A stretch of DNA of 64,000 nt from NCBI GenBank assembly GCA_008632985.1, contig QPGO01000030.1:186001-250000 (forward strand), read 5' to 3'. The translations under genes and the position numbers were made by a program. Shown here in pieces: positions 1 through 40,252 of this stretch. Every line of letters begins with the position of its first letter. Positions within the stretch are counted from its first letter, which is position 1. Below the pieces are notes generated by a model that was not told the origin of the DNA, did not search any database, and was given only the letters and a program-made list of their open reading frames with translations. This DNA comes from Psammoneis japonica. Its lineage: Eukaryota.

Positions 1-10
1 GAGGAAACCC

Positions 11-1857
11 ATGATTAACGGACGGCTTAATCTGCAACCCAAGAAATGGATGGACAGGACCCACATGCTGCCCCCGGCACCAGGACCGAACGATCCCCGA
101 GAGGTCAAGAGCGCCGTCCTAGACCACTCATTGCGCACCATTCGTGAAGGGGAAGGTGCTTGGCAAGCCAAGTGTGAACTGATGACCACTCATCTGGGCA
201 CACCGATGGTGATGACGCAAGCAAAACTTAGGATCGCCTCGTTCGACCTGTTGACACACCCCACCTGTGCATGCACGTTTGCAGGTGCAGTTGACTCAAA
301 CGTCAGAAACATCAACGTGCCAGCTGTCGACGGAGCAGCATTCCGGAACACAGCACGTCACGCAGTGTACGACGTAACCATCAACCCCGGCAACGCGGAC
401 CCAGTGCACGCACTTCGCACGCCAGTCCCAGCAGAGACGAGGCGCGTGTACGCGCGCTTGCCACTGATCGGAGGACAACTCCACCCGAACATCAACGGAG
501 CAACGATCCGATTCTTTGGACACGTGCACCAAACCATGCTTGCCGCAAACCAACCCATCGAGCTCAGCCTCAATGCGGAAACCTGCCTCAGCGAAGAGGC
601 CTTCCAAACATGGAAAAAAAGCATCTGCTGCAAGACGCTCTACGAGCACATAGCCCAACTCATGCCGTCCGCCTTCGTCGGAGATGGGGCAATCAAGTCC
701 GCCGCAAATCGATTGCAAGAATGCACCATGGTCACACAAGACCCAGTGACAGGAACCAAGAAAGGCAGATCCACCCAAGAGCATTTTGAGGCATTCTCCA
801 GCATCGCAGCAGAGCTCGACACGAACCACCCATGCCCAGTCAACCTCGCATGCACATGCTGCTACTCCTTGCCAATGAAATTGCAGGAAAAACTCCACAC
901 CAAGGGTCACAGCCCCCCTGAGGTGTGCAACGGGAATGAGGAACAACTGGCAAATCTCAACACAGCCAAGCAAAGGGCAACGGAGTGTGAACTCGAACTC
1001 AAGATAGAACTCGACACTGTCAAGAATGCGGCAAACAGACGAGGACAAAACCAGTCAGTGGTTATGATGGCTAACCCCAACATCGGAACTCACCAATTCC
1101 CAACGGAAACTCCAGCAAGCATTCCCGGATGCGCAGCCATGCCCAACCCTGCCGCCATTCCTGGATGCGCAGCCACCCCCAACAGCGCACACCCTGGAAC
1201 ACAATCGACCACCCCACAAACGGCACAGCCGACACCAGGAACATTGGCCCACAGTTCAGCAGTGCCAATGGCGACGTTCGGCCCAACGCAACTGTCCACA
1301 TTGCTCTCGGATGCAGCACAAAGAGCCCTCACACAAGATGTCAATGTCACCGACGACACCCCATGTGTCATGTTCCTGTCCACAGCCGAGCAAGCCATGC
1401 GCCAGGCCAGCGGCATGACAGCTCCATGCAAATGTTGGGGCTGCGATGGCATGCACAAATGGGCTGACTGTGACAAACGGAACGACCCCAACGCAAAAGC
1501 AAAAGCAATGGTCAAGATGCAAGAGTTGCGAGAACAATGGCGCGAGAAACGCAGGGCGAGGAACTCCTCACACCAACCAGCGTTGAAACGCACCATGTTG
1601 AGCGAACCAGAGGTGACGGAAAACTGGGAGAGGCTTGGATTCCCCAACAGCAAGGTGGCAAAACAGGTGCACACATTAGCTGCCCCAGAAACATCCAACA
1701 AGAGGCGCAAGCAGATCTGCAAGACCATGTCCACCTTGCTCGCCCAGAAAGACGAGGACAGCCAGATCCACGGAACCCCGGATGTCACACTGTTCACGAC
1801 AATTCGAGCAATGCAAGGCACCATCCCAAACGCACCACTCGACATGTCAGCGGATCT
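11..1857 (+). pseudogene. gag-like region of the Gypsy element
   Basis: Long ORF with a CCHC-type knuckle CWGCDGMHKWADC (~1433-1471), lying upstream of pol. It runs into the N-gap. Confidence 0.75.
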
Positions 1858-2184
1858 NNNNNNNNNNNNNNNNNNNNNNNNNNNNNNNNNNNNNNNNNNN
1901 NNNNNNNNNNNNNNNNNNNNNNNNNNNNNNNNNNNNNNNNNNNNNNNNNNNNNNNNNNNNNNNNNNNNNNNNNNNNNNNNNNNNNNNNNNNNNNNNNNNN
2001 NNNNNNNNNNNNNNNNNNNNNNNNNNNNNNNNNNNNNNNNNNNNNNNNNNNNNNNNNNNNNNNNNNNNNNNNNNNNNNNNNNNNNNNNNNNNNNNNNNNN
2101 NNNNNNNNNNNNNNNNNNNNNNNNNNNNNNNNNNNNNNNNNNNNNNNNNNNNNNNNNNNNNNNNNNNNNNNNNNNNNNNNNNNN

Positions 2185-5100
2185 CATCCCCTTTCTAAGG
2201 AAGACAAAGGGAATGTGGTCGTTCGATGAGCCTCCACAACTCCACATCCCGATGCTCAACGCCACATTCAACGTGACGTGTGTGCCACCGTCATGCAGGG
2301 ACCCGCCCCAACGTCGGAACATCCCGTCAATCTCGACCACGCTCTCAACCTGCTCAATTGAGGAAGGACTCGACATCAACGAGCAGGAATGACAACTGGA
2401 GCAGTGTCTGTCGCCGCCCTGTAGGAACCTGTTAATGAAATGCCCATTGCGCACGAGCAGACACAGATTTGGGTCGGTGTCGGCAACACAAGAGACACTG
2501 GCGACACTCAAGACTTGCCAACCTACGGGCATCAAGTCATTTGCGGCATCTTCAGTGACTACAAAGGAGACAGAGGCAGCCAAGAAAATGAGAGACGGTT
2601 CCAAACCTGTGGTGACCGAGAAACGACCGCACCGCCCCCCGATCAAAAGCACATGTGAAGAGCCAGATTGGGAGCCCGACGAATTCTCGCACATGGAAGT
2701 GTTGTTCAGGGAACATGGCAACGTCCCACATAAGAACAAACACGAGATCCCAACCCGAACTGACGTGATCAAATACGACGATCAAAAACACAAGACGGAA
2801 TTTGAAGAAATGATCCAGTGGGATGACTGCCCGGAAGACAAGCGACAGGATGTCGAACAGACACTCAAACAGCACTGGGACGTGTTCGCTCCCGAGGGCA
2901 TGAAAAAGCCGGTGTCAGGCTTCGAGTTTAACATCGATGCTGGACCAATCAAACCTGTTTGTTGCAAGGATCCAAGATGCGGACCACACGAATCAAGAAT
3001 TGTGACGCAGTTGGTCGAAGGTCTGGAGAAAAATGGAATCGTGGAAGACGATTACGGCCCCTGGGGAGCCCTGGTCGTCTTAGCAGCAAAACCGCACCAA
3101 GGACACAAGCATTGGTCAGAGTGCGTCTGGCGGCCATGCGTGTCATGCAGGGCACTGAACGCTGTCACGAGACCATTCGCCTTTCCAACGAGATGATGCG
3201 ATGACGCTGCGAGAGACATTGGGCCGTCCCGACATTTCATCACGATGGACTTACTTTGGGGGCATTGGCAAATGCCACTGTCCGATGCCGCCAAGGAAAA
3301 AAACGGCATTCTTCGCACCCAACGGGAAGAAACACTTCAACCGAATGCCAACGGGTGTCAAGAACGCATGCCAAGCACACCGCTGTGTCATCGAAGCTGT
3401 CAAAAAGGACTGGGAAAACACAGCACGGGAGTTGAACATGGGAGACGTAAAAATGATGAGTGGAAGAGACATCCCAGGATGCGGCAGTCAAAACATCATC
3501 GACGACATCATCTTACACTCCACGCAGACAACGCGGCTCCTCCAGTGCTTCAAAGTGGTCCTGGCGATGTTCCAAAAGTGTCGCATCACCGTGTCACTGA
3601 AAAAGTGTTGTTTCCTCCCGAAAGCAGCGGTGTTCGTCGGACTGGACATAGAACCAGAAGGAAACAAACCGGCAAAAGACAAACTTCCACTGTTTGAGAA
3701 CCTCAGGCTCAAGCGGCCTCTAACTTTTGGAGACCTGCGGTTGTTCATTGGGCTCCTGGGATTCTGCCAAGAATGGATGCCCCTGTGCGAGATCCGAACA
3801 GCACCGTGGCGACGACACCAAAAGAAGATGCCACCCGGCTTGCACACCCAAGAGGAGGAACGCGAGTGTTTAGAAAAGAACTGGTCAGAGAAGGACGAGG
3901 AACTCAGAATCGAATCGCTGGACGAGATCAAACAACGACCCACCTTGACAAGACCAAACTTCAACAGAAGGTTTTACCTCAAAACCGACTTCAGCAAGCA
4001 TGGCGCAGCAGCGGTCTTGTTGCAAGCCGACCCCGACGACCCGGAAGCGCCAGCCGAAGAAGAACGTCTCAAAACACGACCGGCCCCGCGAAGCAAATTC
4101 GAAATGAAACGCAACACCAAGAAACTGCGACTCCGACCCATTGCTTTCTTCTCACAACGGAGCACACAGGCACAAAGCGCTTGCCATTCGCACACAGGAG
4201 AAGTGTGGGCTGGTTTAGTGGGAATGAGGAAATTCAAACGACATTTGCTGGGAAGCGAATTTACCTGGCTTACGGACTGCAACGGAGCCCAAAAGTTCCT
4301 CCACCCCGTCACCGAAGAAATGCTCACGCACCAACACCAGCGATGGCGCATGGAAATGTCGATGTACGATCACACAGGAGAACACAGGGACAATTCCATG
4401 ATGGCCGAGCCCGACATCCTCACCAGATGCAATTGGTGGACGGAAACGTGGCGGTCAGGCGGCGCGGCACAACCGATTGAGACCCGAGAACCTTGCGGAC
4501 CTCATCCTTTCACGAGCATGCTGGCAACGGCAGCCCCCATAAAACACGACCCGATGCCTTTCAGCAACGTGAAGATGCAGGTGCACGGGCCAGCAACCGG
4601 AGCCAAAACACCACTGGCACAACAAGAGAGCAACTCACGAGCGATCACACTGCACAACGCCGCCACCAACAACACAGAAAGCGCATGCGAGGAAATTGGT
4701 GTAGAAGCACTAACAAGTGCACTCATCGAGGACCGAGTCGAACTCAAGTTCAACCCGAACTCCGAGCTGACACCAGCCGGTTGCGCACCCACAACAGAAT
4801 GGCTGGACCAAGTGAAGCAGGACAGCAACGAGCACACATCGCAGGTGGAGTGGCTCATCGCTGCAGACGGCGGAACACAAGACTTAGAATGGGACCAGAA
4901 AGAAATGGATGAATTCAAAGAATTGGCAATTACCTCCAAAGAAAAGCAAAACCTGCAAGCCCCAATCGTCTTTAGGGACCGACGAGACACACACCGAGTC
5001 ACCCCGGAAAACAACCCACACAAGTGGGTAGACACAGAACTCCAGTGGGACAGACTCGAGGTTAAACTGCAAGGCACACGACACGGCAGCCCCACACAAA

Positions 5101-8084
5101 GCTGCCACTCAGTGCTGACAGCAACAAAGGATCCCGAGGTTTTAGAGACGATGCAGTTCGAAGAACAAGAACCCGGCAGCATGTTGCCTTACCTGGAACA
5201 ATGGGACAGTTCCACCGACGACATCACGAGAGAACGCGAACTCGCCGAAGTCGAACGACAGCTGCCAGACGTGCTTCCAGACTCACCACACAAACCCAGA
5301 GCAACAAAGAGGGTGCAGAGACCCAACGAGGCAGTGTGGACACCAGTGTACGACGTCGAGCACCCAGCCCCACCCTTGCGGCTCAAGGAAAACACGTGGT
5401 ACGAAAGCCCATTCGCAATCGAAGTGCACGACCACTTCGAGCACGAAAGCGGAATCCGCAGGATCAGACTCCACGAGCTCGTCAACATGATGGGATTCCA
5501 AGGTGTCACGGCGGAAAGGCTCAAGCTGATGCATCACGACACAGTCCTCGACCACCCAGCGGTCACACCACCAAAACAAGTGGTCAGTGCAGCATTGCAA
5601 GGACTGATTTTAGCAGAGCAAAGGGCACAATTACGGACACAAGAGGTCTTGCCAGCCAGAGACGCAAGCCCAATGGAGATGCTGCTAACCGCACTCCAAT
5701 CTACACCGGCATGGGAGTTGAATGGCATTGCCACCCTTCCCTTGCCATCAAAGAGCGACTGGCAAGAAGCCTCCCAGCAAGAACCGGATGTCAAACCATG
5801 CATCGACGCACTAGAAGCGGGCACCAAGCTTGACAAGTCCAAATTAATGAACAAGGAGTTCAGCAAGGAATTCCAACACGGAAGACTCGGGACCGAGGAG
5901 GGTGTCCTGTGCCGGCACGAAGGGAAGAAGCAAAGCCTGTTGAGACAAATCAGGACAAGAGCAGTGCCAAAAAGATGCAGGCAGACCGTCTTCTCAGCAC
6001 TGCACGTCTCACCTTGTGCAGGACACTCAAGCTACGAAAAAACCTGCTGGAAGATCGCCGCGAGGTTTTGGTGGCCGGCAATGGCTGCAAATGTGAGGGA
6101 ATGGACGTTGGGATGTGCAATGTGCCAAGCAGTCAATGTCACTAGCCACGAAGCACAACAAATCATGAAGACCATGCAAGCCGACGCACCGTTCGACACA
6201 GCAGTTATGGACGTGTGGACACCTGGACGAGTGGCAGTGAGAAAGAATGCGGCAAATGCATTGGGCTGCCTAGACTCAATGACAGGATTCGCAAGCATCA
6301 CATTTCTTACCTCTTGCACCTCAGAGGACGCAGCAAGAGCCGCGTTCCACGCGTTCTTCGTCCCCCACGGTCTGCCGAGACTCGCACTCGTAGACGCAGG
6401 GCGACAGTTCGCCGGACTCGTGTTGCAGCTGTGCAGCCTGTTGGGCATGCAAGCCCACCCAGCAACAAGAGAGAACCACAAGGCCATTTTGTGTGAGAGG
6501 TTCTTTAGACACCTGAACAAGATGGAGCACATGCAAACGGCAGATTGCCAATCCTCAAACGAATGGACGCTCGGAGCTGCTTTCGCGACCTGCGCATGGA
6601 ACAGCGCACCGGTGGAAGGCACTGACATCGTGAGAAGCAGAGCAGCAATGGGACGCGACTTCCCTTTTCCTGTCGACACTCACCAGGAAGCAACAGTCCC
6701 AAGGGAGAACACCAATCAGGGAGAGCAAGTCCCAGAACACATGAGCGCGACCTTCCCTCTCCTTGCAAAGCAGCGACTCACATTGAAGCTGCTCACAGAA
6801 GACCGCAGAAACCATCACAGAACACTCGCCAACAAAAACCGTTCAGGAAACAAGTTCCAACCAGGTGATCTGGCAATCGTAAGGAAACAAGTGCAAACGT
6901 CAGAAAAAGGCCCGGGGAAACTGATGATCAAAGCAAGAGGGCCACACAGAGTGTTGGAGAAGATGCACGAAGGAGCACACAACATCCAACGAATGCCTTT
7001 CACAGAAGGCATCAGACGAGTTGGCAAAACATGCAAAGAAAGCTCAGCACGTGTGGAAGCCATGCCTTCGACGCTGGCACTCCATAAGACCACCAACGGT
7101 GCAGACACTCGCATGGCAACGATAGAACGCCCTGTGGTAAACCACCCCCTGGAGAACACGTTGGGCACAGTGGATTTCGGCAGATGCGCCAAGACGGCAC
7201 CAGAAAACAACTTCGCTCATGACAAGATTGAGGATGTGCACCCCACCTTCCAGATGTGTGACGACGACGACAACAATGAAAACAACGACAGGGACAATAG
7301 CGCCGCAACAACTCCAACTGTCAACGATGAAGCAGAAAATGATGCCAGCCGAAGCGACGGCAACAACGTCCTGCAGGATGCGCAGACAGACGACACCACC
7401 GAAACCGGCCCATCATCAGCATCCACAAGTGCATCACCAGAGACAGTTGCTGCCGACGCCGAAAACACCAATGCCAAGCTCAGACGATCAAACAGAAGGA
7501 AACGGACACCTTCGAAACTACAAGATGATGACGATGTCAGGAAACGAGGACGCGCGAACAACAGGGCGATGCACGAAAACCTGTGGAACAAGGTGCAAGA
7601 ATCTCGAGACAAACTGTTTTTCATCAGTCACACCGCCAAGGGAACCACTCGCCGTTGCTGGCATCTTGTTCAGGTGGACCCAGCAAACACCGACCCGACC
7701 ATGGCGAAGCATTTTGGACAATGTTGTGTGGTGTGGTACATTCGACACCAAGGGGACAGCACCACCAGAAAAACAAGAAACTGTCGGTTTTGGCCAGAGA
7801 CACACGAGCTTTGTACAGACAACACTCTTGGGCCTATGATGCAAGTCAAGCCAGGGAAAGCAAAGGCCTTTTTAGAACGGCACCCACACACGCACCAAGC
7901 CCACTCGGACGAAATAGATTTGACGAAGCAAAGCATCCTCGGGCCTTTCAACTTCGCACCACCAAAAGATCACCAACAAGAAAGCCACCGAATCAGTGAT
8001 GCACATTGGACAGAACTACAAGCCCTTGCACGACTGCAACACATGCGGACGGACGACACAGACGAAGTGATGCCATTGCGCTGA
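2185..8084 (+). pseudogene. pol: RT - RNase H - inserted MTase-like domain - integrase - C-terminal extension
   Basis: RT motifs GPWGALVVL, WRPCVSCRALN, FITMDLLWGHWQ, NIIDDIIL. RNase H motifs FYLKTDFS and FTWLTDC. Integrase HHCC zinc finger (H-x6-H...CAMC, ~6000-6125), core MDVW/VDAG/CERFF, and a GPY-like ARGPHRV. In-frame TGA at 2390 and 3194 (probably CGA->TGA), and a frame change in the A-run at ~3297-3303. Confidence 0.9.
4638..5620 (+). other. C5 DNA-methyltransferase-like domain inserted in pol, catalytically degenerate
   Basis: Motif order matches C5 MTases: ITLHNAATNNTESACEEIG (motif I position), VEWLIAADGG (IV), APIVFRD (VI), LQGTRHGSPTQSCHSVL (VIII), VYDVEHPAPPL (TRD), IRRIRLHELVNMMGF (IX), AVTPPKQVVSAALQGL (X). 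Confidence 0.65.
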
Positions 8085-8610
8085 GTGGTGAATCTGTGTG
8101 ATGGACACCATCATGCACCCTCGCGTCTCACCCGTTTGAACTTTTCCTTTGTGCTCACAATAACTTTAGGATAACTTTACATTGCTGGACGAGCATCCAC
8201 TAGACTGAGTGCTGTGCACACTGACCTTGTGGAGGTTGTTTGGAGCAGGCTGGAGGAGTCGACACTCCAAGCACGAAGCTGAGCAAGGAATGAGCCAGGA
8301 ACAGCTAAATCCCATGTCCCACTCCAGTCATCGCGATGACCTGCAAAAGGAGGCGCGAATCAATGGACAAACAACAAGTAAGATGACTTGCAGGTTGGCA
8401 CTTGTTGGTCCTGACGCGCAGCGACATTGTGCCGTGCACCCACGGACGGACCCTGGCTGGCTCATGAAAGGCTGTGACGCGGAAGACTTGGACAGCAGAC
8501 CTCTAAGCACCGCATTCACGACACTGGTGCCCCCTTGAGTAAGCTTAGTGTAGGGAGGAGAGGGACGCCTCAACTCTCATGACTTCGCAAGCGCCTGGGA
8601 ATACACTGGT

Positions 8611-8618
8611 AGAGGGGA
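8611..8618 (+). other. polypurine tract (PPT)
   Basis: AGAGGGGA immediately precedes TGTAACG. Confidence 0.7.
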
Positions 8619-9102
8619 TGTAACGTGACGCCTGTACTGCATCCGTCGGCTACGTGCAAGCCGTGTGATGTACAGACCGTGGGCTAGACAGCTCCGATCT
8701 CAGCCATCCCTTGCACTCTCACAACAACCATCCTCACCCTTTTGGCACAGGACACCTCATCGGATATCCCCTACCATGGCGTCTGACGATGACGCCCTGT
8801 ACGACTTGTACTGTGCTGATGGCACGCAACAGGCTCTTATTATTGCGGCCATTGCGGATCTCGGATCTTGGATGCGGGCGGATCTCGGATCTCACTCGTG
8901 ACTGCATGCCGTTAATCAATACCACAATCTCACGTAAACAGGACATGTCTGATCTACCAGGATCCTCGTACAATTCTTACGCAGGAGCTCACCACACCAT
9001 TCATTGAAATCTTCATCCATCAATCCATCCAGCCATCAGCCATCACATCGGATCATCTATCGGAGGCTTGCTGCGCGTCGTTCCGTTAGTCTTAACTTCA
9101 CA
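8619..9102 (+). repeat. 3' LTR; right end uncertain (CA at 9102 or 9123)
   Basis: Begins with TG directly after the PPT and has candidate CA ends before the next host gene. The 5' LTR is not in the window, so this cannot be confirmed. Confidence 0.6.
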
Positions 9103-24739: not shown

Positions 24740-26265
24740 ATGGTATGATCATTTTACTATGCGATTTTGTGTACAAAACCTGCCCGCCCGCTTTTGATTC
24801 GTGATAGACGGATGGTTTTGAACAAATTTATGACGATACATCGTTGGTTCGTAGAAACTACGTAACACCTGGTATGTCGAAGCAATCACATCCGAGCAAG
24901 CCTTTGAATCTCGATCACGTGGAAGCTCTCACAATTCGAAAGTTTGACCGATCAATCAAGCTAAGCATCGTCTTCCGTCTTTACCGTCAATCATCATGCA
25001 GGCCTCTCTTCTTCTCTTCACCATGACGCTCTTTACCATCTTCAGCGGCGCTATTCCATTCCCCATCGAACATGCGCTCTTTGCCTTTGCCGTCCTCATC
25101 GCGTTGAAGCAAGCCGTTCAACTTTCGAACGTCGACAAGACGTGCGTCGCGCCTTTCCGAGTCCCTGAGACCAAGCCATCCAAGTTGATTCCGATCCAGA
25201 TTCCCGCCGAGCAGTCGAACAATAGAAAGAGAAAGCGATCGAGCACTGCCAGCTGTTCTGACGATCTTGACGACTCTTCACGTGAAACGAAAGTGCCCAA
25301 AACAGCCATGACCACTTACAAACGCACCATCCGTAAAGTCCGCAAGACTAAAAAACGTTCGAAGGACAAGGAACGTGAATCACCCTTTGACCGTCGAAAG
25401 ATACAAGCGTTGGCACGTCAAAAAATCATCAACGAACGTCGCTTTGGCACAAGCGAAAAAGGCGAAAAGCCCGCTACTCAGAAGAAGCTCCGCCGACGTC
25501 GACCCGCCGAAGATGTTCCGCTTCTAATTCGCATGCGTCAAGAAGTGCAAGCCGCCAAGCGCAAGGAAAGGGTCTGGGCTAATCGTCGAAAAGCCGCCTA
25601 AGGACAAACAAGGATCAGTCAATATTCATCCTGCGGCAGAGTCTATTTGTGTTATGGCATCATTACATTTTCAAGACGGGTTCTCGAGGGAAGGATTGCA
25701 ACTTAGAATAGGATTGAATGGAGTTTCTGGTTTACCGATTCGCAGCAACTCGACGATTCCGCGGAAGAATTCTACTTCTTAAGAAGAGGTATCTCTGATG
25801 CCGTGATCCATTTTGGTGAAGCAACTGAAAAGAATCAGTCAGTTGTGACCAACTCACCGGATCATAGGGTTCAATATGCGGTTTGTATCGTTGTTGGGAA
25901 GTAAACATGTGAAGAATTCTACTTGACCGATTCACCGAATCACAGAATTCGCTATCGATTAGAAGTAAAAATCCAGAAAACAATTCAGAAGTTTAGAACA
26001 GAACAATAAGTACATAAAGCGATCCTACTCAAAACGACCATTCTTTCTTTTACTAAGACTCCTCAAAAGAGCTGACGTCGTAGTGTGTACCGGTACGGGG
26101 GACGTTTGTTCAACTCGTGTTTAAAAAATCCAGTTTTTTTGTCATCTTAGTTTCTTGCCTTTTTTATTTGTTATCACCCACATTCGTCAACGAGTATTGC
26201 AGAAGTACTTGCATCTTCGGTGCGCACCACTAGTTGATCTGTGGTCGTAGCTTGAACAAGGTACA
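24740..26265 (+). repeat. segmental duplication, copy 1
   Basis: Colinear, highly similar to ~38810-40252, including upstream, CDS and downstream sequence. Confidence 0.9.
24996..25601 (+). CDS. hypothetical protein, hydrophobic N-terminus and basic C-terminus (paralog 1)
   Basis: 201-aa ORF kept open in both duplicate copies, with an in-frame indel. Confidence 0.65.
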   Translation: MQASLLLFTMTLFTIFSGAIPFPIEHALFAFAVLIALKQAVQLSNVDKTCVAPFRVPETKPSKLIPIQIPAEQSNNRKRKRSSTASCSDDLDDSSRETKVPKTAMTTYKRTIRKVRKTKKRSKDKERESPFDRRKIQALARQKIINERRFGTSEKGEKPATQKKLRRRRPAEDVPLLIRMRQEVQAAKRKERVWANRRKAA

Positions 26266-30600: not shown

Positions 30601-33120
30601 TCACAGTTGCACCTGACTGTGCCAGAGCTGCAAAGTGGGTTGAGAGTTCACACATGCGAGAGTGCCAGGGTGTGGCTGGGAAACAGTGGTCTGGGTGTTG
30701 CCACATGATCATTGCCTGAGGTGTTGGCAGGGATGTCAGCAGGCAAGGCTGGGGTGCCTGAGAGGTGGCTGTTCTGTGGGAAGTGCCACCAGCTTGCACT
30801 CTCAGATTGCTTTGGCACAGCATTGCAATTTGCAAGTTCAGCTCTTTGACAATCACTGCTTGCATGCCACACCAACACATTCCAACAACTTTCCCATGTT
30901 TTCCCAATTCTGGTTTGACACATGGCTCTTTCTTCCTGGGGATGCCCAACTCAAGAAAAGCACAAGCAGCACACTGGTGCTGTTGAGTGCAGCTCTGCTG
31001 GCCCTGTGTGTGCTGAAGCACCTCCTGAAGATTTTGCAAGATGTTGACAAGTGATGGAGCTCTTCTCAACAAAAAGACAGTCTGCCTGAAGACCCCCAGG
31101 AACCACCTGTCCCCAAGTTGCTGCTCAGCTCTTGTTGATGGCAACATTGCAGATGGTTGGCCCAACAACTCCATTGGTTTGGTCAAGACAGACAGCACCA
31201 GCATGTCATCTTGAGGCACTGCCACTGGTGGTGGTGGAGCAGGCAGTCCAACAGCAAGTGCTGCCATCACTGCACTGCAGGTGGTTGCTGATTTCTTTGT
31301 CAAGGTGGTCAAACAAGTTGTTTTTTAAGTGTGCCTCTGAACACTCATTCTTCTGCAACTGCCAAGCCCCCATCATGGTTGGCAGCATGGGCACTTTCAA
31401 CTCCAACTAAAAAGTGGCATGGTGTGCTGAAAGACTGAAGGTTGGCTCTCAGATCTCACCACTCAAACTGACCCAAAGTTCCCTGTGTGGTGCTGCTGCA
31501 CAGGGCACAAGTCAACTGAGAAGTCCAAGAAGGGTGGCAATTTTGACTCACTGGCTGCACTGTGGGCCATTCTTTTTTGATGCATCATGGTGGGATGGGT
31601 GCAATTTCACACCCCATGCCAGATCCCACTGGCCCAATGTGTGCACAGCTTGTTTCATCAAAGAGAAAAGAGAGTGTGCTTTTGACCATCTGTTGAAAGA
31701 GTCCAAGACAAGACAAGGACAAGATTGAGCTGCAGCTCACAAAGTGTGACAAGTGCAACAGCAACAATTGCCACAACATGGCAGCTCTCTGTCACAGCTG
31801 CACTGAGGCAACTCTTTTCAAAAGGAAGACAATGAGCCCTTTCCCACTCAGTGGTGGCAACTCTTTAAGATGTTTTGCACCCAAGTCATCACCTGTTTTC
31901 AGAAGGTCCAGGATGAGATCTGCAAAAAGCAACATCCTGCCACACCTGCAATCCAACAAAGAACCAGCTTTTCTCACTGTGGCCCCCCCACCCATGCAAC
32001 AACAATCTCACCTGGATTTCTTGAAATCCTCCCTTTTTCCTGGTGGGCCAGATGGCAAAGACTTTTGCTCAGGTCTCTGCACCAAACCAAGAACCTGCTG
32101 AAGAAAAAGTTGACAAAGAAAAAGTTGATGGAGCTTGCAAGTGTGCCAAAGGATGATGCAGATTGTGAGCCACTGGCTGACAACCTTGTCAGTGCCTCCA
32201 TTTTTGAGCTTGTCACTGACGGGTGCTGCGGGCAGTGCAATGAAAGCAAGTGGTTGTTGGCTTGCAATGCCAAGTGTGCAAAGATTCCACCTGGCAGTCT
32301 CAGAGCCCTCGTCATGTGTGCCAGCTCAGTGGAGCCACAGAGACACCTGAGATTGACTCACTTGTCCAGTGCAAGGTTGGCGTCAAGGTGTCATGGAGAC
32401 AATGACAAAATGTGGTGGCAGGCAGTTGTCACAACTGCTGCCACCAGGCACGTGAACATTCACAATCTGTCAGAGCCATGCTGCTGGCCATGGATTGGCT
32501 GGTGGACACCATGGCAGCAATGGTGGCAGCTGCAACAAGGGTGTGGTGGCAGCTGCAACAGAGTTGGGGCAACAACAGCAGCAGCAGCAATGATTGCTGC
32601 TTGACTCCAGCAACACAGGCATGGAATTCCCCCCCCCCCAACAGCCAGCACCAACCATGGCCAGCAACCCAGCGCACAGATGATTTGCTCCAGTCACATG
32701 CACAACAACAAAAGGAGGCAAAAATGGACATTTTGTGCATTGCTTTGCATGCTTGCTCCACATTGGTGGCTTCTTGCATCTCCTCCTGGTGCTGCATCTG
32801 TGAAAAAAAGCTTTTGTGCAAATGCAAACAATTTCTCTCCAGCACATGCAAGACCCTCCTCTGTTTGGCCACTGCAAAACACCCACTTTTCAATGTTTGT
32901 TTGTTTGAAAGGAGGAGGTGCACAACCCCAACAGAAACAGTCATTGACCTTGACAGCAAATCTGTCCCTGCCGTTGTTCTTGTGGGTGGAAAAATCAACA
33001 AAATTTTCCAAAAGCGTGTCAACAACAAGTGAGAAAATGGACATTTTTTGTGCTTTGCAAACAACAGCTTTCTGTCCAAGCAGACTCTGAGCATTGTGAC
33101 ATCATGCTTTGCCTGCTGCT

Positions 33121-34185
33121 GTGTCATGCTTTGTTGATCAAGTCTGCAGCCCTGCTTTTGCCCATGACATCATGCTTGCAAAGCTGGCTGCCTTGCGTGC
33201 AAAAAGTGTCTGCTTTCAAGATGTTCTGCCATGTGTTGGCTGGGCCAAGGAGGAAAAAGTGTGAAGAGCTTTTGACTGTGGTGTGCACCACAACTTTTCT
33301 TGTTGTTGCAAAAGAAGAAGGGGATGTCAAGCAAATGTGCTGTTCTCCCAATCTGCCTGATTTTGGTCTTTTTCCAAGATGCAACACAGCTTCTGCCACT
33401 TCCCACACATGGCAACATCATTTGCAATTGTTTCTCACTCAATGTTCCAGGTTGATTGGCACAACACAGCACATTTTGCAAGTGCTGGTGTGTCATGCTT
33501 TGTTCATCAGGTCTGCAGCCCTCTGTTTTTGCCCACAAAATGCCTGCAAAGCAGGCTGCCTGGTGTGCAAACAGCACCTGCTTTCAAAATGTTCTGCCAT
33601 GTGTTGACTGCACCAAGGAGGTAAAAGTGTGAAGAGCTTTTGACTGTGGTGTGCACCACAACTTTTCTTGTTTGCATGAAAGAAGTGCTGCCATCCCAAT
33701 CTGCCTGATTTTGTTTCTTTCCAGGATGCAGCACAGCTTCCACCACTTCCCACACATGACAACATCATTTGCAATTGTTTCTCACTCAACATTCCAGGTC
33801 AATTTGCACAACACAGCACACTTTGCAAGTGCTGGTGTGTCATGCTTGTTCATCAGGTCTGCAGCCCTCTGTTTGTGCTCATGAAATGCTTGCAAAGCAG
33901 GCTGCCTGGCATGCAAATGGCACCTGCTTTCAAAATGTTCTACTGTGTGTTGACTGCACCAAGGAGGCAAAAGTGTGAAGAGCTTTTGACTGTGTTGTGC
34001 ACCACAACTTTTCTTGATGGCACAAAAGAAGTGCTGTTCTCCCAATCTGCCTGATGTTGGTTTTTGTTTCAGGATGCAGCACAGCTTCTGCCACTTCCCA
34101 CACATGGCAACATCATTTGCAATTGTTTCTCATTCAAGAACATTCCAGATTGATTTGCACAGCACAGCACATTTGGCAAGTCATG
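33121..34185. repeat. three tandem copies of a ~350-370 bp unit
   Basis: Unit start gtgtcatgct(t)tgtt.atca.gtctgcagccc at ~33121, ~33490 and ~33837. Confidence 0.88.
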
Positions 34186-35500
34186 CAACACTCTTTTGTG
34201 AGTCCTGCATGCCAAGCAACAAGTGGAACATGGCACAACAATGGAGACCAGGACATCAGAAAAACAGGTGACAGCATGCCCTGTGCATGAAAAATTGAAA
34301 AGAAGATGCAAAATGTCAAAAGATCCACAACATCAAGCGGTTGCAAGAAAGTCAGTTGACAACGTTGTTGGAGATGATGAGATCAAAATGACTCCTGCAC
34401 CGGAAATGCAAAGAAACAGTCATTGGCATTTCACACACTTGCACCACAGGCTTGTGCATGAAATCAGCCTGGAACCCAAAGGCAAGCCACATGTCACATG
34501 CTCGTTCTGCCTTTTCAAAAGGACAAGCCAGCCATTCATGATGTCACCGGTGCAATCTCTCTGTTCTTCCCACTTGTGCACAACACGGGCTGACTTTCAA
34601 TGCTCCCATGGCAGCAGCGGTGCTTGTTCAATGGCTTGTCTAACAAGAGCCTGATGGGATCAATGCTCCAGCTCTCTGTTTCCATTGTGTCATTCTCAGA
34701 ATTGTGGAGGACAAATGCAACATGTTTGTTTTCATGCATCCACGTGCCAAAGGTCAGAATTGACAAAAACCAAATGCCCCACGAACCAAAGCATGGATTG
34801 GATGGACCACCAAGAGCACTGTTGATGCCAGTGCACTCACAGATGAACCACAAAAACAAACCCAAAACAGACATGGCACAAAAGCCTTCCACTTGTCTCC
34901 AATCCAAGTTCAGTTTCCAGCCTCAACAAAGATGAATTCTCAGTGGCTTGTTGGAAAGACAATGCACGCAAGTGACACTCAAGAGTGACACAACCATGGC
35001 AGAAAAGAATGTTCCCAACACCTTGTTCCATTCATGTTGTGGCACTTGCTGAACAACCCCTTCTAGCAAGATTTCCAATTCACCCCGATTTGTGTGGAGT
35101 TCTAGAATGGAACATGCCTCCACCAAACTGAAAACCAGGATGGGAGCACACCACCTGCAAATGGTTTCATGCTTGTTGTTTTGGACCATGTCGACAAGCA
35201 GTGGCAAGTTGGCACCCATCCTCCATGCACTGCCTGATGTTGACAGCCACACTGGCAAAGGCAATCAATGTTGCAAAGCAGGGCCCCAGACATTTGGAGC
35301 AACCTTGCCAGTGGAAAAGGTGCTGGCACAAATGTGCAAGGCACCTGTCCAAAAGAGCAGTGTGCCAATCAACAGGGCCAGTTCCCAGCAACTGCCATCA
35401 TGAAAGACAATGTTTCCAGAATGGTGGAAATGAGACCAAGTCAAAGTGAACCACCAAGACAAAGACTGACATGCCCACAGCTGCAGCCAACATGACCACG

Positions 35501-36089
35501 GCTCCATCTAACTTCCCACTAAAGAGCAAGTGCTGTCAGCACCAGAAAACAAATGATGGTCTTTCCACGAATTGATTGTGTCTCCAGGAACATTCTCACC
35601 AAATGCATGAGCAAATTTGCTGTCATTGTTTTCATTGCCATTGGTTTCTTCTTCCAACCCACATTGTCGCATGACTTGAACACTGTCCTTGTCATCACCA
35701 TCAACACAAAACCAGATGGCCAAGACAAGCATGACAACACTTGCCACCAACATGAACAGAGGTGTCCCTGCAACCATGGTGAACCCCAAATGTCATCATG
35801 GCTCCATCTGACTTCCCGCCAAAGAGCAAGTGCTGTCAGCATCAGAAAAAAATGACAGTCTTTCCACAAATCAATTCTGTCAATGTTCTCACCAAATGCA
35901 TGGGCAAACATGTTGTCATTGTTTTTGTCCCCCTTGGTTTCTTCTTCCAACCCATGTTGTCACACAACTTGAACACTGTCCTCATCATTGCCATTGACAC
36001 AAAACAGGATGGCCAAGACAAGCATGACAATGCTTGCCACCAACATGAACAGGCATCCCTGCAATCATGGTGAACCCCAAATGTCATCA
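35501..36089. repeat. two tandem copies of a ~300 bp unit
   Basis: gctccatct.acttccc at 35501 and 35801; both copies end in gaaccccaaatgtcatca. Confidence 0.88.
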
Positions 36090-38809: not shown

Positions 38810-40252
38810 TATGATCATACTGTACTATCACATTTTGTGTACAAAACCTGTCCGCCCGCTTTTGATTCGTGTGATTGAAGGCGGGATGGCTTTGACGATA
38901 CATCGTTCGTCCGTAGAATCTACGTAAAGTCTAGTATGTCGAAGCAATCACATCCGAGCAAGCCGTCGAAACCGCCATCACGCTGAACCTCTCACAATTC
39001 CGAAGTTGACCACTTATCAAGCATCGACTTACGTCTTACTACTATCAATCATCATGCAGGCCTCCCTTCTTCTCTTCACCATGACGCTCTTTACCATCTT
39101 CGGCGGCGCTATTCCATTCCCCATCGAACACGCGCTCTTTGCCTTTGCCGTCTTCATCGCGTTGAAGCAAGCTGTTCAACTTTCGAACGTCGACAAGACG
39201 TGCGTCGCGCCTTTCCGAGTCCCTGAGACCAAGCCATCCAAGACGATTCCGATCCAGATTCATGCCGAGCAGACGAACAATAAAAAGAGAAAGCGATCGA
39301 GCACCACCAGCTATTCTGACGATCTTGACGACTCTTCACGTGAAACGAAAGTGCCCAAAACCGCCATGACCACTTACAAACGCACCATCCGTAAAGTCCG
39401 CAAGACTAAAAAACGTTCGAAGGACAAGGAATGTGAATCACCCTTCGACCGTCGAAAGATACAAGCATTGGCACGTCAAAAAATCATCAACGAACGTCGC
39501 TTTGGCACAAGCGAAAAAGGCGAAAAGCGCGCTGCTCAGAAGAAGCTCCGCCTCCGCCGACGTCGACCGGACGAAGATGTTCCGCTTCTACACCGCATGC
39601 GTCAAGAGGTGCAAGCCGCCAAGCGCAAGGAAAGGGTCTGGGCTAATCGTAAAAAAGCCGCCTAAGGACAAACAGGGGTCAGTCAATATTCATCCTGCGG
39701 CAGAGTCTATTTGTGTTGTGGCATCATTACATTTTCAAGAGGGGATCTCGAGAGACGGATTGCAACTTATGGTGGGATTGAATGGAGTTTCTGGTTTACC
39801 GACTCGTAGCAACGTGACGAATCTGCGGAAGAATTCTACTTCTTAAGAAGAGGTATCTCTGATACCGTGATCCATTTTGTTGAAGCAACTGAAAAGAATC
39901 AGTCGGTTGTGACCAACTCATCGGATCATAGAGTTCAATATGCGATTTGTATCGTTGTTGGGAAGAAATCAAAGGAAGAATTCCACTCTATTCAACAATT
40001 TGAAACAGAAAAAAGAAATATATAGAGCAATCCTACTCACAATCAAAACTACCATTCTTTCTTTTACTAAGGCCAGTAGAGCTGACGTCGTAGTGCGTGT
40101 ACGGGGAATGTTTTTCCAACTCGTGTTCGAAATATCCATTTTCCGTCATCTTCCTTCTTGCCTTTTCATCTGGAATCACCCACATTGGTCAATGGTAACG
40201 CCTTGAATCTTCGGCGTGCACTACTAGTTGATTTGTAGCTTGAAAAGGTATC
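38810..40252 (+). repeat. segmental duplication, copy 2
   Basis: Matches 24740-26265. Confidence 0.9.
39054..39665 (+). CDS. hypothetical protein (paralog 2 of 24996-25601)
   Basis: Near-identical translation starting MQASLLLFTM. Confidence 0.65.
   Translation: MQASLLLFTMTLFTIFGGAIPFPIEHALFAFAVFIALKQAVQLSNVDKTCVAPFRVPETKPSKTIPIQIHAEQTNNKKRKRSSTTSYSDDLDDSSRETKVPKTAMTTYKRTIRKVRKTKKRSKDKECESPFDRRKIQALARQKIINERRFGTSEKGEKRAAQKKLRLRRRRPDEDVPLLHRMRQEVQAAKRKERVWANRKKAA

Follow-up and report, generated by a model that had tools for sequence, protein, structure and literature searches.

What occupies the long interval between RNase H and integrase in a Ty3/Gypsy-type retroelement of Psammoneis japonica, and what might it be for? 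The element lies on the + strand of a 64,000-nucleotide stretch of DNA (NCBI GenBank assembly GCA_008632985.1, contig QPGO01000030.1, positions 186,001 to 250,000), hereafter the window, the first 8.1 kb of which are filled by its 3′ part. When the 1641-aa open reading frame (ORF) of its pol region is searched against Pfam, 532 aa separate the end of the RNase H match (4367) from the start of the integrase zinc finger (5964). An earlier note on this DNA had proposed that a pseudo-DNA methyltransferase (DNMT) is fused at this place into a Gypsy-type pol, and both a structural match and the presence of the insert in sister elements bear this out. The insert is predicted to be a complete two-lobed C5 cytosine DNA methyltransferase (C5-MTase) fold of 340–370 aa, set between a tether that follows RNase H and an N-terminal extension of the integrase. 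We regard it as almost certainly a pseudo-enzyme domain of this fold, and the models and the alignment together describe a family-wide pseudo-methyltransferase. The pol itself is of the Ty3/Gypsy type, as indicated by the Pfam order RVT_1, RT_RNaseH and Integrase_H2C2 and by the match of a family profile, which includes the N-terminal extension of the integrase, to the Ty3 Gag-Pol chain 7q5b_A (E 7.1e-16); the integrase of prototype foamy virus (PFV) is also matched by the family profile (E 2e-20).

For structure prediction, the 371-aa stretch of the window was aligned with 28 relatives and submitted to AlphaFold 2 (AF2), with five models and no templates. The resulting model of the insert (4545–5657) has a predicted local distance difference test score (pLDDT) of 88.3 and a predicted template modelling score (pTM) of 0.90, and all five models lie at pLDDT 86–88. 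Compared by Foldseek with the Protein Data Bank (PDB), it gave 127 matches at E <= 0.001, the best at E 2.5e-11 (M.MpeI and M.HhaI), and every match listed among the best 50 of these 127 is a protein of the C5-methyltransferase fold; they include M.MpeI, M.HhaI, M.HaeIII, prophage and Shigella Dcm-like enzymes, DNMT2, DNMT5, DNMT1, MET1, DIM2 and a C5-carboxymethyltransferase. Superposition on M.HhaI with VIA-align yielded Z 23.6 at a root-mean-square deviation of 3.8 over 297 of 327 residues (model residues 30–366 against chain residues 10–327) and spans the whole enzyme, its small target-recognition lobe included. Other chains gave Z 22.0 (M.MpeI), 19.8 (DNMT1), 19.0 (M.HaeIII) and 17–18 (DNMT2), where the background quoted for models without a true match is Z 7–8. 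The model comprises a Rossmann-like catalytic lobe, a small target-recognition lobe and a return via motifs IX and X, and it shares both the two-lobed fold and the order of elements, from end to end, with M.HhaI and M.MpeI (297–304 residues) and also with M.HaeIII, Dcm, DNMT1/MET1/DIM2 and DNMT2. The comparison with M.HhaI and DNMT2 by AlphaFold and Foldseek, which the earlier note had recommended, has thus come out in favour of its proposal, and the span that it had assigned to the domain, 4638–5620, falls inside the part that superposes on methyltransferases (~4626–5645). A predicted complex of two copies of the domain scored 0.00, which is not evidence either way.

In the sequence the same relationship is faint, and it is here that a sceptical explanation has to be considered, namely that there is no real feature: chance would have produced the likeness of the motifs, and structure prediction a spurious model. 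The Pfam family PF00145 (DNA_methylase) does not match the insert of the window even at E <= 10, and a single one of 29 family members matches it, at E 0.81, which does not amount to a detection; the HMMER/Pfam check that had also been recommended would, if relied on, wrongly dismiss the pseudo-DNMT. Likewise, a profile of the domain only (16 members) gave four matches at E <= 10 among PDB sequences, none of them a methyltransferase. Alignment with Escherichia coli Dcm by hhalign found motif IX as the sole local match (model residues 299–321 to Dcm 394–416, E 0.021, probability 2.3%), and the same motif was matched in a profile of 40 diverse Dcm-like enzymes (E 0.0019, probability 14%), which were drawn from viral contigs, the search for Dcm homologues having given only close orthologues (at least 74% identity). 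In this alignment R305, E311 and G317 of the domain correspond to R400, E406 and G412 of Dcm, which are invariant among Dcm orthologues. The sequence trace of homology is therefore weak, yet it appears as the correct motif at the correct place. A chance likeness would be in keeping with the absence of methyltransferases from the Pfam and PDB profile searches and with hhalign probabilities of only 2–14%, but it has to contend with five template-free models that agree in their high pLDDT, with a full-length Z to M.HhaI far above the background, and with the conservation of the region across polyproteins that are just 15–36% identical to the insert of the window. We consider it extremely unlikely.

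Whether the domain could still act on DNA as an enzyme depends on its residues. The motifs of C5-MTases include FxGxG (motif I, which binds S-adenosylmethionine, SAM), the Pro-Cys nucleophile (IV), ENV (VI), RxR (VIII), R..E..(L/M)G(F/Y) (IX) and motif X. They were sought in a family alignment of 16 members, consisting of the window and 15 relatives, in which residues were placed on the methyltransferase elements by secondary-structure order and alignment ranges and not by residue-level structural alignment. Neither [FYLIV]xGxG nor a PC dipeptide occurs in the catalytic lobe of any of the 16 members, and EN[VIL] is absent from the whole domain in all 16, the window having FRDR at the place of ENV. 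There is no conserved Cys column, Cys being found in at most 4 of 14 members in any column, and between model residues 170 and 216, the region of motif VIII, no Arg column is conserved in the manner of RxR, G181 being the only conserved residue. The loop after strand 4 is variable, and a PC within 22 residues past the Asp-Trp motif was encountered in one of 21 proteins (P0050). This Pro-Cys was rejected as a real motif IV and is ascribed to chance: the close relative P0012 differs there, and P0050 is without the other catalytic motifs. P0050 (473 aa) also appears to be without the small-lobe and motif IX region.

What the insert does share with C5-MTases is the R..E..G of motif IX, with R305, E311 and G317 invariant in 16 of 16 members, and a set of non-catalytic signature residues. 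In the catalytic lobe these comprise R32 in strand 1 (13/15), the acid at the end of strand 2 (residue 62: E in 12, D in 2 and Q in 1 of 15), D/E102 (16/16) and W103 (14/16) in strand 4, and the invariant G181 of the motif VIII-like loop (16/16). In the small lobe they comprise P267 (13/16), D270 (12/16), P274 (15/16) and P276 (16/16), and further on P343 at the motif X position (12/16) and A357 and E358 in the last helix (14/16 each). The four motifs by which the domain had originally been recognized, LQGTRHGSPTQ, VWTPVYDVEHPAPPL, IRRIRLHELVNMMGF and AVTPPKQVV..., are located where they had been placed (see the table), and they fall on the columns in which the family is most conserved, among them those of the five invariant residues G181, P276, R305, E311 and G317. 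Unlike C5-MTases, the insert has no FxGxG, Pro-Cys or ENV and remains below all sequence-profile thresholds. The earlier note had recognized the absence of these catalytic residues in the window copy, and the alignment extends it to 15 of 15 relatives; relatives that keep them intact, which that note had envisaged, were not found among the 16 aligned members. Because the residues are missing family-wide, decay of the window copy is not the cause of their absence, as had been argued before. Judged from the alignment, the chemistry was lost before the sampled family diverged, and CpG-type decay is not the explanation.

The domain should accordingly be unable to methylate cytosine by the canonical mechanism, and it is very probably non-catalytic altogether. 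It might be supposed that it is still an enzyme, namely a transferase, SAM-dependent or otherwise, whose chemistry is non-canonical and relies on different catalytic residues. Most members keep the acid with which strand 2 ends, at a position that binds the cofactor ribose in Rossmann methyltransferases, and the Asp-Trp on strand 4 is conserved, both of which would suit such an enzyme; but the glycine-rich loop, Pro-Cys and ENV are missing in all 16 members, no Cys is conserved, and the would-be active-site loops are precisely the variable ones. An enzyme of this kind is in our estimation very unlikely.

Relatives of the insert were collected by an exhaustive phmmer search of the 532-aa stretch against 1.84 billion cluster representatives, which gave 53 matches at E <= 0.001; 14 of them reach E <= 1e-10, and four reach E <= 1e-30. 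Of the 53 relatives, 33 match the insert proper over at least 100 aa and 17 over at least 300 aa, and 11 cover the integrase-proximal tail only, so that the conservation of the insert in sister copies, which the earlier note had made a test of its proposal, is borne out. Other searches returned less: a word-indexed search with the insert sequence gave no match, one with the domain profile gave three matches, all from ENA/JGI, and a metagenome scan with a 5-sequence alignment confirmed one locus (L083) of 41 pattern matches, the sole DNA relative found. The order of reverse transcriptase (RT), RNase H, insert and integrase is common to the polyproteins P0004, P0006, P0008, P0014, P0018 and P0176 and to contig L083. 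Since the long relatives have the same domain order, the insert is, judged from these sequences, a character of the family and not a quirk of the window copy. Within the family it changes quickly. Mean pairwise identity among 11 long members reaches 53% in RNase H and 48% in the zinc finger and core of the integrase, and falls to 20% in the catalytic lobe of the insert, 24% in its small lobe with motifs IX and X, and 14–18% in the flanking linkers. The insert thus evolves at roughly twice the pace of RNase H and integrase, its fold kept and its surface changing quickly.

A weak sequence constraint (20–24% identity) combined with a preserved fold is what a structural or assembly module without a host partner might display, that is, a spacer or scaffold in Pol that serves the geometry of RT-RNase H and integrase, protease processing or the multimerisation of integrase. 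The invariant residues G181, P276, R305, E311 and G317 are of the fold-holding kind, and the domain is situated between two enzymatic units of the polyprotein, as such a module would be. However, a two-lobed domain of 370 aa is a costly spacer, most Ty3/Gypsy pols to our knowledge do without one, and a uniformly acidic surface together with a conserved small-lobe motif suggests a specific interaction. We therefore hold a purely structural role to be somewhat unlikely.

Charge is the property that bears most directly on what the domain could bind. It is acidic in 16 of 16 members (isoelectric point, pI, 4.85–5.92; net charge -8 to -25), whereas the 40 Dcm-like methyltransferases have pI 6.05–9.69 with a median of 8.8, all 40 lying above pI 6; the C5-MTases compared are thus neutral to basic, and the acidic insert differs from them also in being part of a retroelement polyprotein. 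Within Pol, the insert is the only net-negative module, with -4.2 per 100 aa and a negative charge in 11 of 11 long members; RNase H carries +0.9, the integrase core +0.8 and the integrase C-terminus +7.8 per 100 aa. These values bear on the idea that the domain is a nucleic-acid binder, which would clamp CpG, methyl-CpG or flipped-base DNA, cDNA ends or RNA (a tRNA primer, in the manner of DNMT2) and thereby guide integration or reverse transcription. In its favour, the architecture by which such enzymes embrace DNA is retained in full, target-recognition lobe included (Z 23.6, 297 residues). Conservation peaks in the small-lobe motif and in motifs IX and X, and the structural matches include tRNA methyltransferases of the DNMT2 type (Z 17–18). 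Yet the domain is acidic in every member where all the Dcm-like enzymes are less so, it is the sole net-negative module of a Pol whose nucleic-acid-binding integrase C-terminus is strongly positive, and its motif VIII region is without a conserved Arg column. The suggestion of the earlier note that the domain might be a plain DNA or methyl-CpG binder is thus disfavoured by the uniformly acidic charge, and we rate nucleic-acid binding in general as quite unlikely.

We tentatively prefer to see the domain as a protein-binding adaptor that acts with the integrase or with the host methylation machinery, a reading whose probability we place slightly below even and which we infer from charge, position and rate alone. 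It is suggested by the fact that the insert is the sole acidic module of Pol, evolves about twice as fast as its neighbours with its fold kept, and is placed directly N-terminal to the integrase; in addition, an acidic surface is ill suited to clamping DNA. Integrases of LTR (long terminal repeat) elements usually choose their targets through protein tethers, as in Ty3, Ty5, Ty1, murine leukaemia virus (MLV) and human immunodeficiency virus (HIV), and dead DNMT paralogues act by protein contact, both of which argue in the same direction. According to this scenario, an ancestral element would have taken up a methyltransferase whose target-recognition lobe was complete; its catalysis would have been lost before the family diversified, and the scaffold would have been kept for a non-enzymatic job. 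The adaptor would travel with the integrase and could link the pre-integration complex to host factors that are the usual recruiters or partners of the host DNMT, which would target integration; alternatively, it could titrate these recruiting or partner factors and so counteract silencing. A bolder version, which we consider unlikely, holds that the domain is a transposon-encoded mimic of the host DNA methyltransferase, a dead acidic copy beside the integrase that binds the host factors by which DNMTs are recruited or activated.

Several considerations weigh against the scenario of a captured, dead methyltransferase turned adaptor. The window copy itself is dead, its RT being broken by a stop codon and by a change of frame. 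Catalytic positions were mapped, as stated above, through the order of secondary structures and the ranges aligned, and not residue by residue. The identity of the domain (20–24%) is only modestly above that of the linkers (14–18%), and constraint beyond the keeping of the fold is therefore weak. Its best-conserved parts, namely the small-lobe motif, motifs IX and X and the strand-2 acid, are situated where real enzymes hold cofactor and DNA, and a ligand pocket could have been retained. Finally, charge is gauged only crudely by pI, the enzymes used for comparison all belong to a single bacterial/phage subfamily (Dcm-like) with the catalytic domains of eukaryotic DNMTs outside it, and a local basic groove may exist on the domain despite its net acidity.

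Known systems offer partial precedents. DNMT3L is a catalytically dead host DNMT paralogue, truncated and without the C-terminal motifs, which partners DNMT3A and acts by protein binding. As in DNMT3L, the methyltransferase fold of the insert is kept after loss of the catalytic motifs, although a function through protein–protein contact belongs to DNMT3L; the insert differs in having preserved motifs IX and X and the small lobe best, and in being carried by a transposon instead of being a host gene.

The capture of active DNMTs by retrotransposons is documented for SymbioLINE (SymbioLINE-DNMT), SymbioDIRS (SymbioDIRS-Dnmt3) and a Gypsy-type element of Klebsormidium (KnitGypsy-Dnmt3), and these retrotransposon DNMTs are described as having conserved key residues and as being under purifying selection, with some of them methylating CG de novo in yeast (PMC5890265). 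The earlier note was thus right that LINE and DIRS elements have captured DNMTs, and its list needs to be widened by the Gypsy-borne KnitGypsy-Dnmt3 (PMC5890265). In addition, LTR elements with adenine methyltransferases have been described, among which the EpiLTRs of Cymbomonas and Euglena also carry a DNMT, appended in Cymbomonas at the 3′ end of pol (bioRxiv 10.64898/2026.05.21.726589). As described in these texts, all of these elements resemble the present family in that a domain of cytosine-methyltransferase fold was captured into the pol ORF of a retrotransposon, and KnitGypsy-Dnmt3 and the EpiLTRs resemble it also in being Gypsy-type. They differ in two respects and perhaps in a third: the retrotransposon DNMTs of PMC5890265 keep their catalytic residues, all of which the insert family has lost; the DNMT of Cymbomonas is at the pol 3′ end, and the insert lies between RNase H and integrase; and the captured DNMTs are reported there as DNMT3- or DNMT4-related, whereas the structures nearest to the insert are enzymes with a full target-recognition domain (TRD), such as M.HhaI, M.MpeI and DNMT1. 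No DNMT3 chain is among the 50 VIA-align matches listed, which is not decisive. The word 'diatom' is absent from the main texts of PMC5890265 and bioRxiv 10.64898/2026.05.21.726589.

Among diatom elements, GyDi, a Ty3/Gypsy lineage whose domain order is described as typical (protease, RT, RNase H, integrase; PR-RT-RH-IN), has no extra domain mentioned in that description (PMC2806351); it shares with the insert family the Ty3/Gypsy-type pol order in a marine protist lineage and might be its home clade. The portion of a paper on diatom DNMTs considered here mentions no transposon-borne DNMT (PMC9998398). The chromodomain of chromoviruses is mentioned in the introduction of bioRxiv 10.64898/2026.05.21.726589. 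It offers a further parallel as another accessory non-enzymatic domain fused or next to a Ty3/Gypsy integrase and a candidate for steering integration; it has ~50 aa, is found at the integrase C-terminus and has a demonstrated role in targeting, whereas the insert differs in fold, size and position, and its targeting is hypothesised. A full-text literature search found no published catalytically dead methyltransferase domain in a retrotransposon pol, and the supplements of PMC5890265 and bioRxiv 10.64898/2026.05.21.726589 could list more DNMT-bearing elements. The capture of methyltransferases by retrotransposons is therefore already known, and what is new here is a family-wide pseudo-enzyme at a new position.

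The features of the element are collected in the table. Its gag-like ORF is interrupted by a scaffold gap (a run of N at 1858–2184), into which the protease region probably falls, and its translation displays a motif like a Cys-His knuckle, the only Pfam match being a weak one to a coiled coil. The copy is broken in RT, where an in-frame TGA (3194–3196) stands at a place at which relatives keep Arg, and the reading frame changes at or near a run of seven A (3297–3303); this frame change at a homopolymer could be an assembly error. Pfam models of the integrase are matched in relatives as well, rve by 5, SH3_Tf2-1 by 9 and Integrase_p58_C by 6 of 29. None of the direct-repeat pairs of the window involves 1–9100, but with the 5′ end of the element outside the window, LTRs could escape this view.

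Table. Features of the retroelement in the first 8.1 kb of the window (positions are those of the window)
Feature	Position	Strand	Basis and remarks
gag-like ORF	2..2392	+	ORF list; 5′ side truncated by the window start; stop 2390-2392
Reverse transcriptase, N-terminal half	2393..3296	+	2393-3196 in the frame of the gag-like ORF, which differs from that of the long ORF; three-frame translation against homologues P0004, P0008 and P0018
pol ORF, 1641 aa	3159-8084	+	ORF list; stop codon 8082-8084
Reverse transcriptase, C-terminal part (RVT_1)	3297..3644	+	Pfam aa 47-162, E 2.1e-06, just under the curated cut-off
RNase H domain	3882..4367	+	Pfam RT_RNaseH_2 E 6.4e-14 and RT_RNaseH E 3.1e-13 (aa 267-403); together aa 242-403
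Post-RNase-H tether, ~30 aa	4368..4454	+	Family alignment; consensus HRP..mm.E.D.L.RYN..T..WR; mean pairwise identity 57.5%
Predicted pseudo-methyltransferase domain (371 aa modelled)	4545..5657	+	AF2, Foldseek, VIA-align; C5-MTase fold ~4626-5645
Strand 1, degenerate SAM-loop site (NAATNN), helix A, strand 2 ending in E62-D63 (motif II-like)	4635..4733	+	DSSP of the model
Strand 4 (VEWLIAAD) and Pro-Cys-site loop (GGTQD, no Cys)	4842..4880	+	Column conservation
Motif VIII-like loop LQGTRHGSPTQ	5067..5099	+	Loop flanked by strands at model residues 169-176 and 187-194
Small-domain (TRD) motif VWTPVYDVEHPAPPL	5334..5378	+	Most conserved stretch of the small domain
Motif IX-like IRRIRLHELVNMMGF	5454..5498	+	Only stretch that hhalign aligns to real C5-MTases
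Motif X-like TPP and long last helix	5559..5645	+	AVTPPKQVV... at 5559-5600; helix at model residues 344-367
Integrase N-terminal extension, ~80 aa (LPLP...W..A...D.D...)	5727..5963	+	Family alignment
Integrase: H2C2 zinc finger, catalytic core, C-terminal SH3-like part	5964..7148	+	Zinc finger 5964-6137 = Pfam Integrase_H2C2, aa 936-993, E 1.7e-15
Conserved C-terminal domain, then stop	7569..8084	+	Kept in 8 relatives; AF2 model

A second lineage-specific module forms the C-terminus of pol, separated from the integrase by an acidic/basic spacer. It is a conserved domain of ~170 aa (7569–8081) with W31, C72, R73, P76, E77, P95, G125, P126, W147 and P169 invariant in 8 relatives. Its AF2 model has pLDDT 88.5, and compared with solved structures it gave no Foldseek match at E <= 0.001 (best E 0.095) and a best VIA-align Z of 4.5. 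The weak VIA-align matches are mostly readers of the BAH, Tudor, chromo or PWWP type and MazF barrels, and the model may represent a new chromatin-reader-like fold.

The composition of the DNA was also found to be unusual. In the element (1–8084), TpA is strongly depleted (observed/expected, o/e, 0.20), with CpA at 1.32 and TpG at 1.61, and strand asymmetry is strong (A 30.7%, T 15.4%). A 22-kb stretch at 31100–53100 has CpG o/e 0.40–0.41 and TpA 0.20–0.25, TpA elsewhere in the window being 0.46–0.53. A mutational process, editing or a codon effect are candidates for the TpA/CpG skew. Further along the window, direct repeats at 24831–25787 and 38893–39851 consist of three collinear blocks of 78–300 nt that are 88–95% identical and lie ~14,060 bp apart, and may represent a segmental duplication or the LTR pair of a further large element; 33132–34195 and 35593–36052 contain tandem repeats with a period of ~347 bp (three copies, 63–90% identical) and a pair spaced by 293 bp.

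The known captures of DNMTs by retrotransposons form a recent and small set, all of whose members are described as catalytically competent. The Gypsy-type family considered here appears to have kept the fold long after losing the chemistry, which suggests that a genomic parasite has found a second use for a DNMT scaffold, one without enzymatic activity, be it targeting, mimicry or decoy. As the domain escapes Pfam and hidden Markov model (HMM) searches and comes to light only in predicted structures, the number of pseudo-enzyme domains in transposon polyproteins is probably underestimated. If the domain were indeed a mimic of the host methyltransferase, it would be the first transposon-borne dominant-negative or decoy of the 5-methylcytosine (5mC) machinery, and its fast evolution would reflect an arms race with the host. 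New insertions would then be steered into chromatin that is already methylated and gene-poor, or, as the other outcome, the methylation complex would be poisoned and fresh cDNA would escape silencing.

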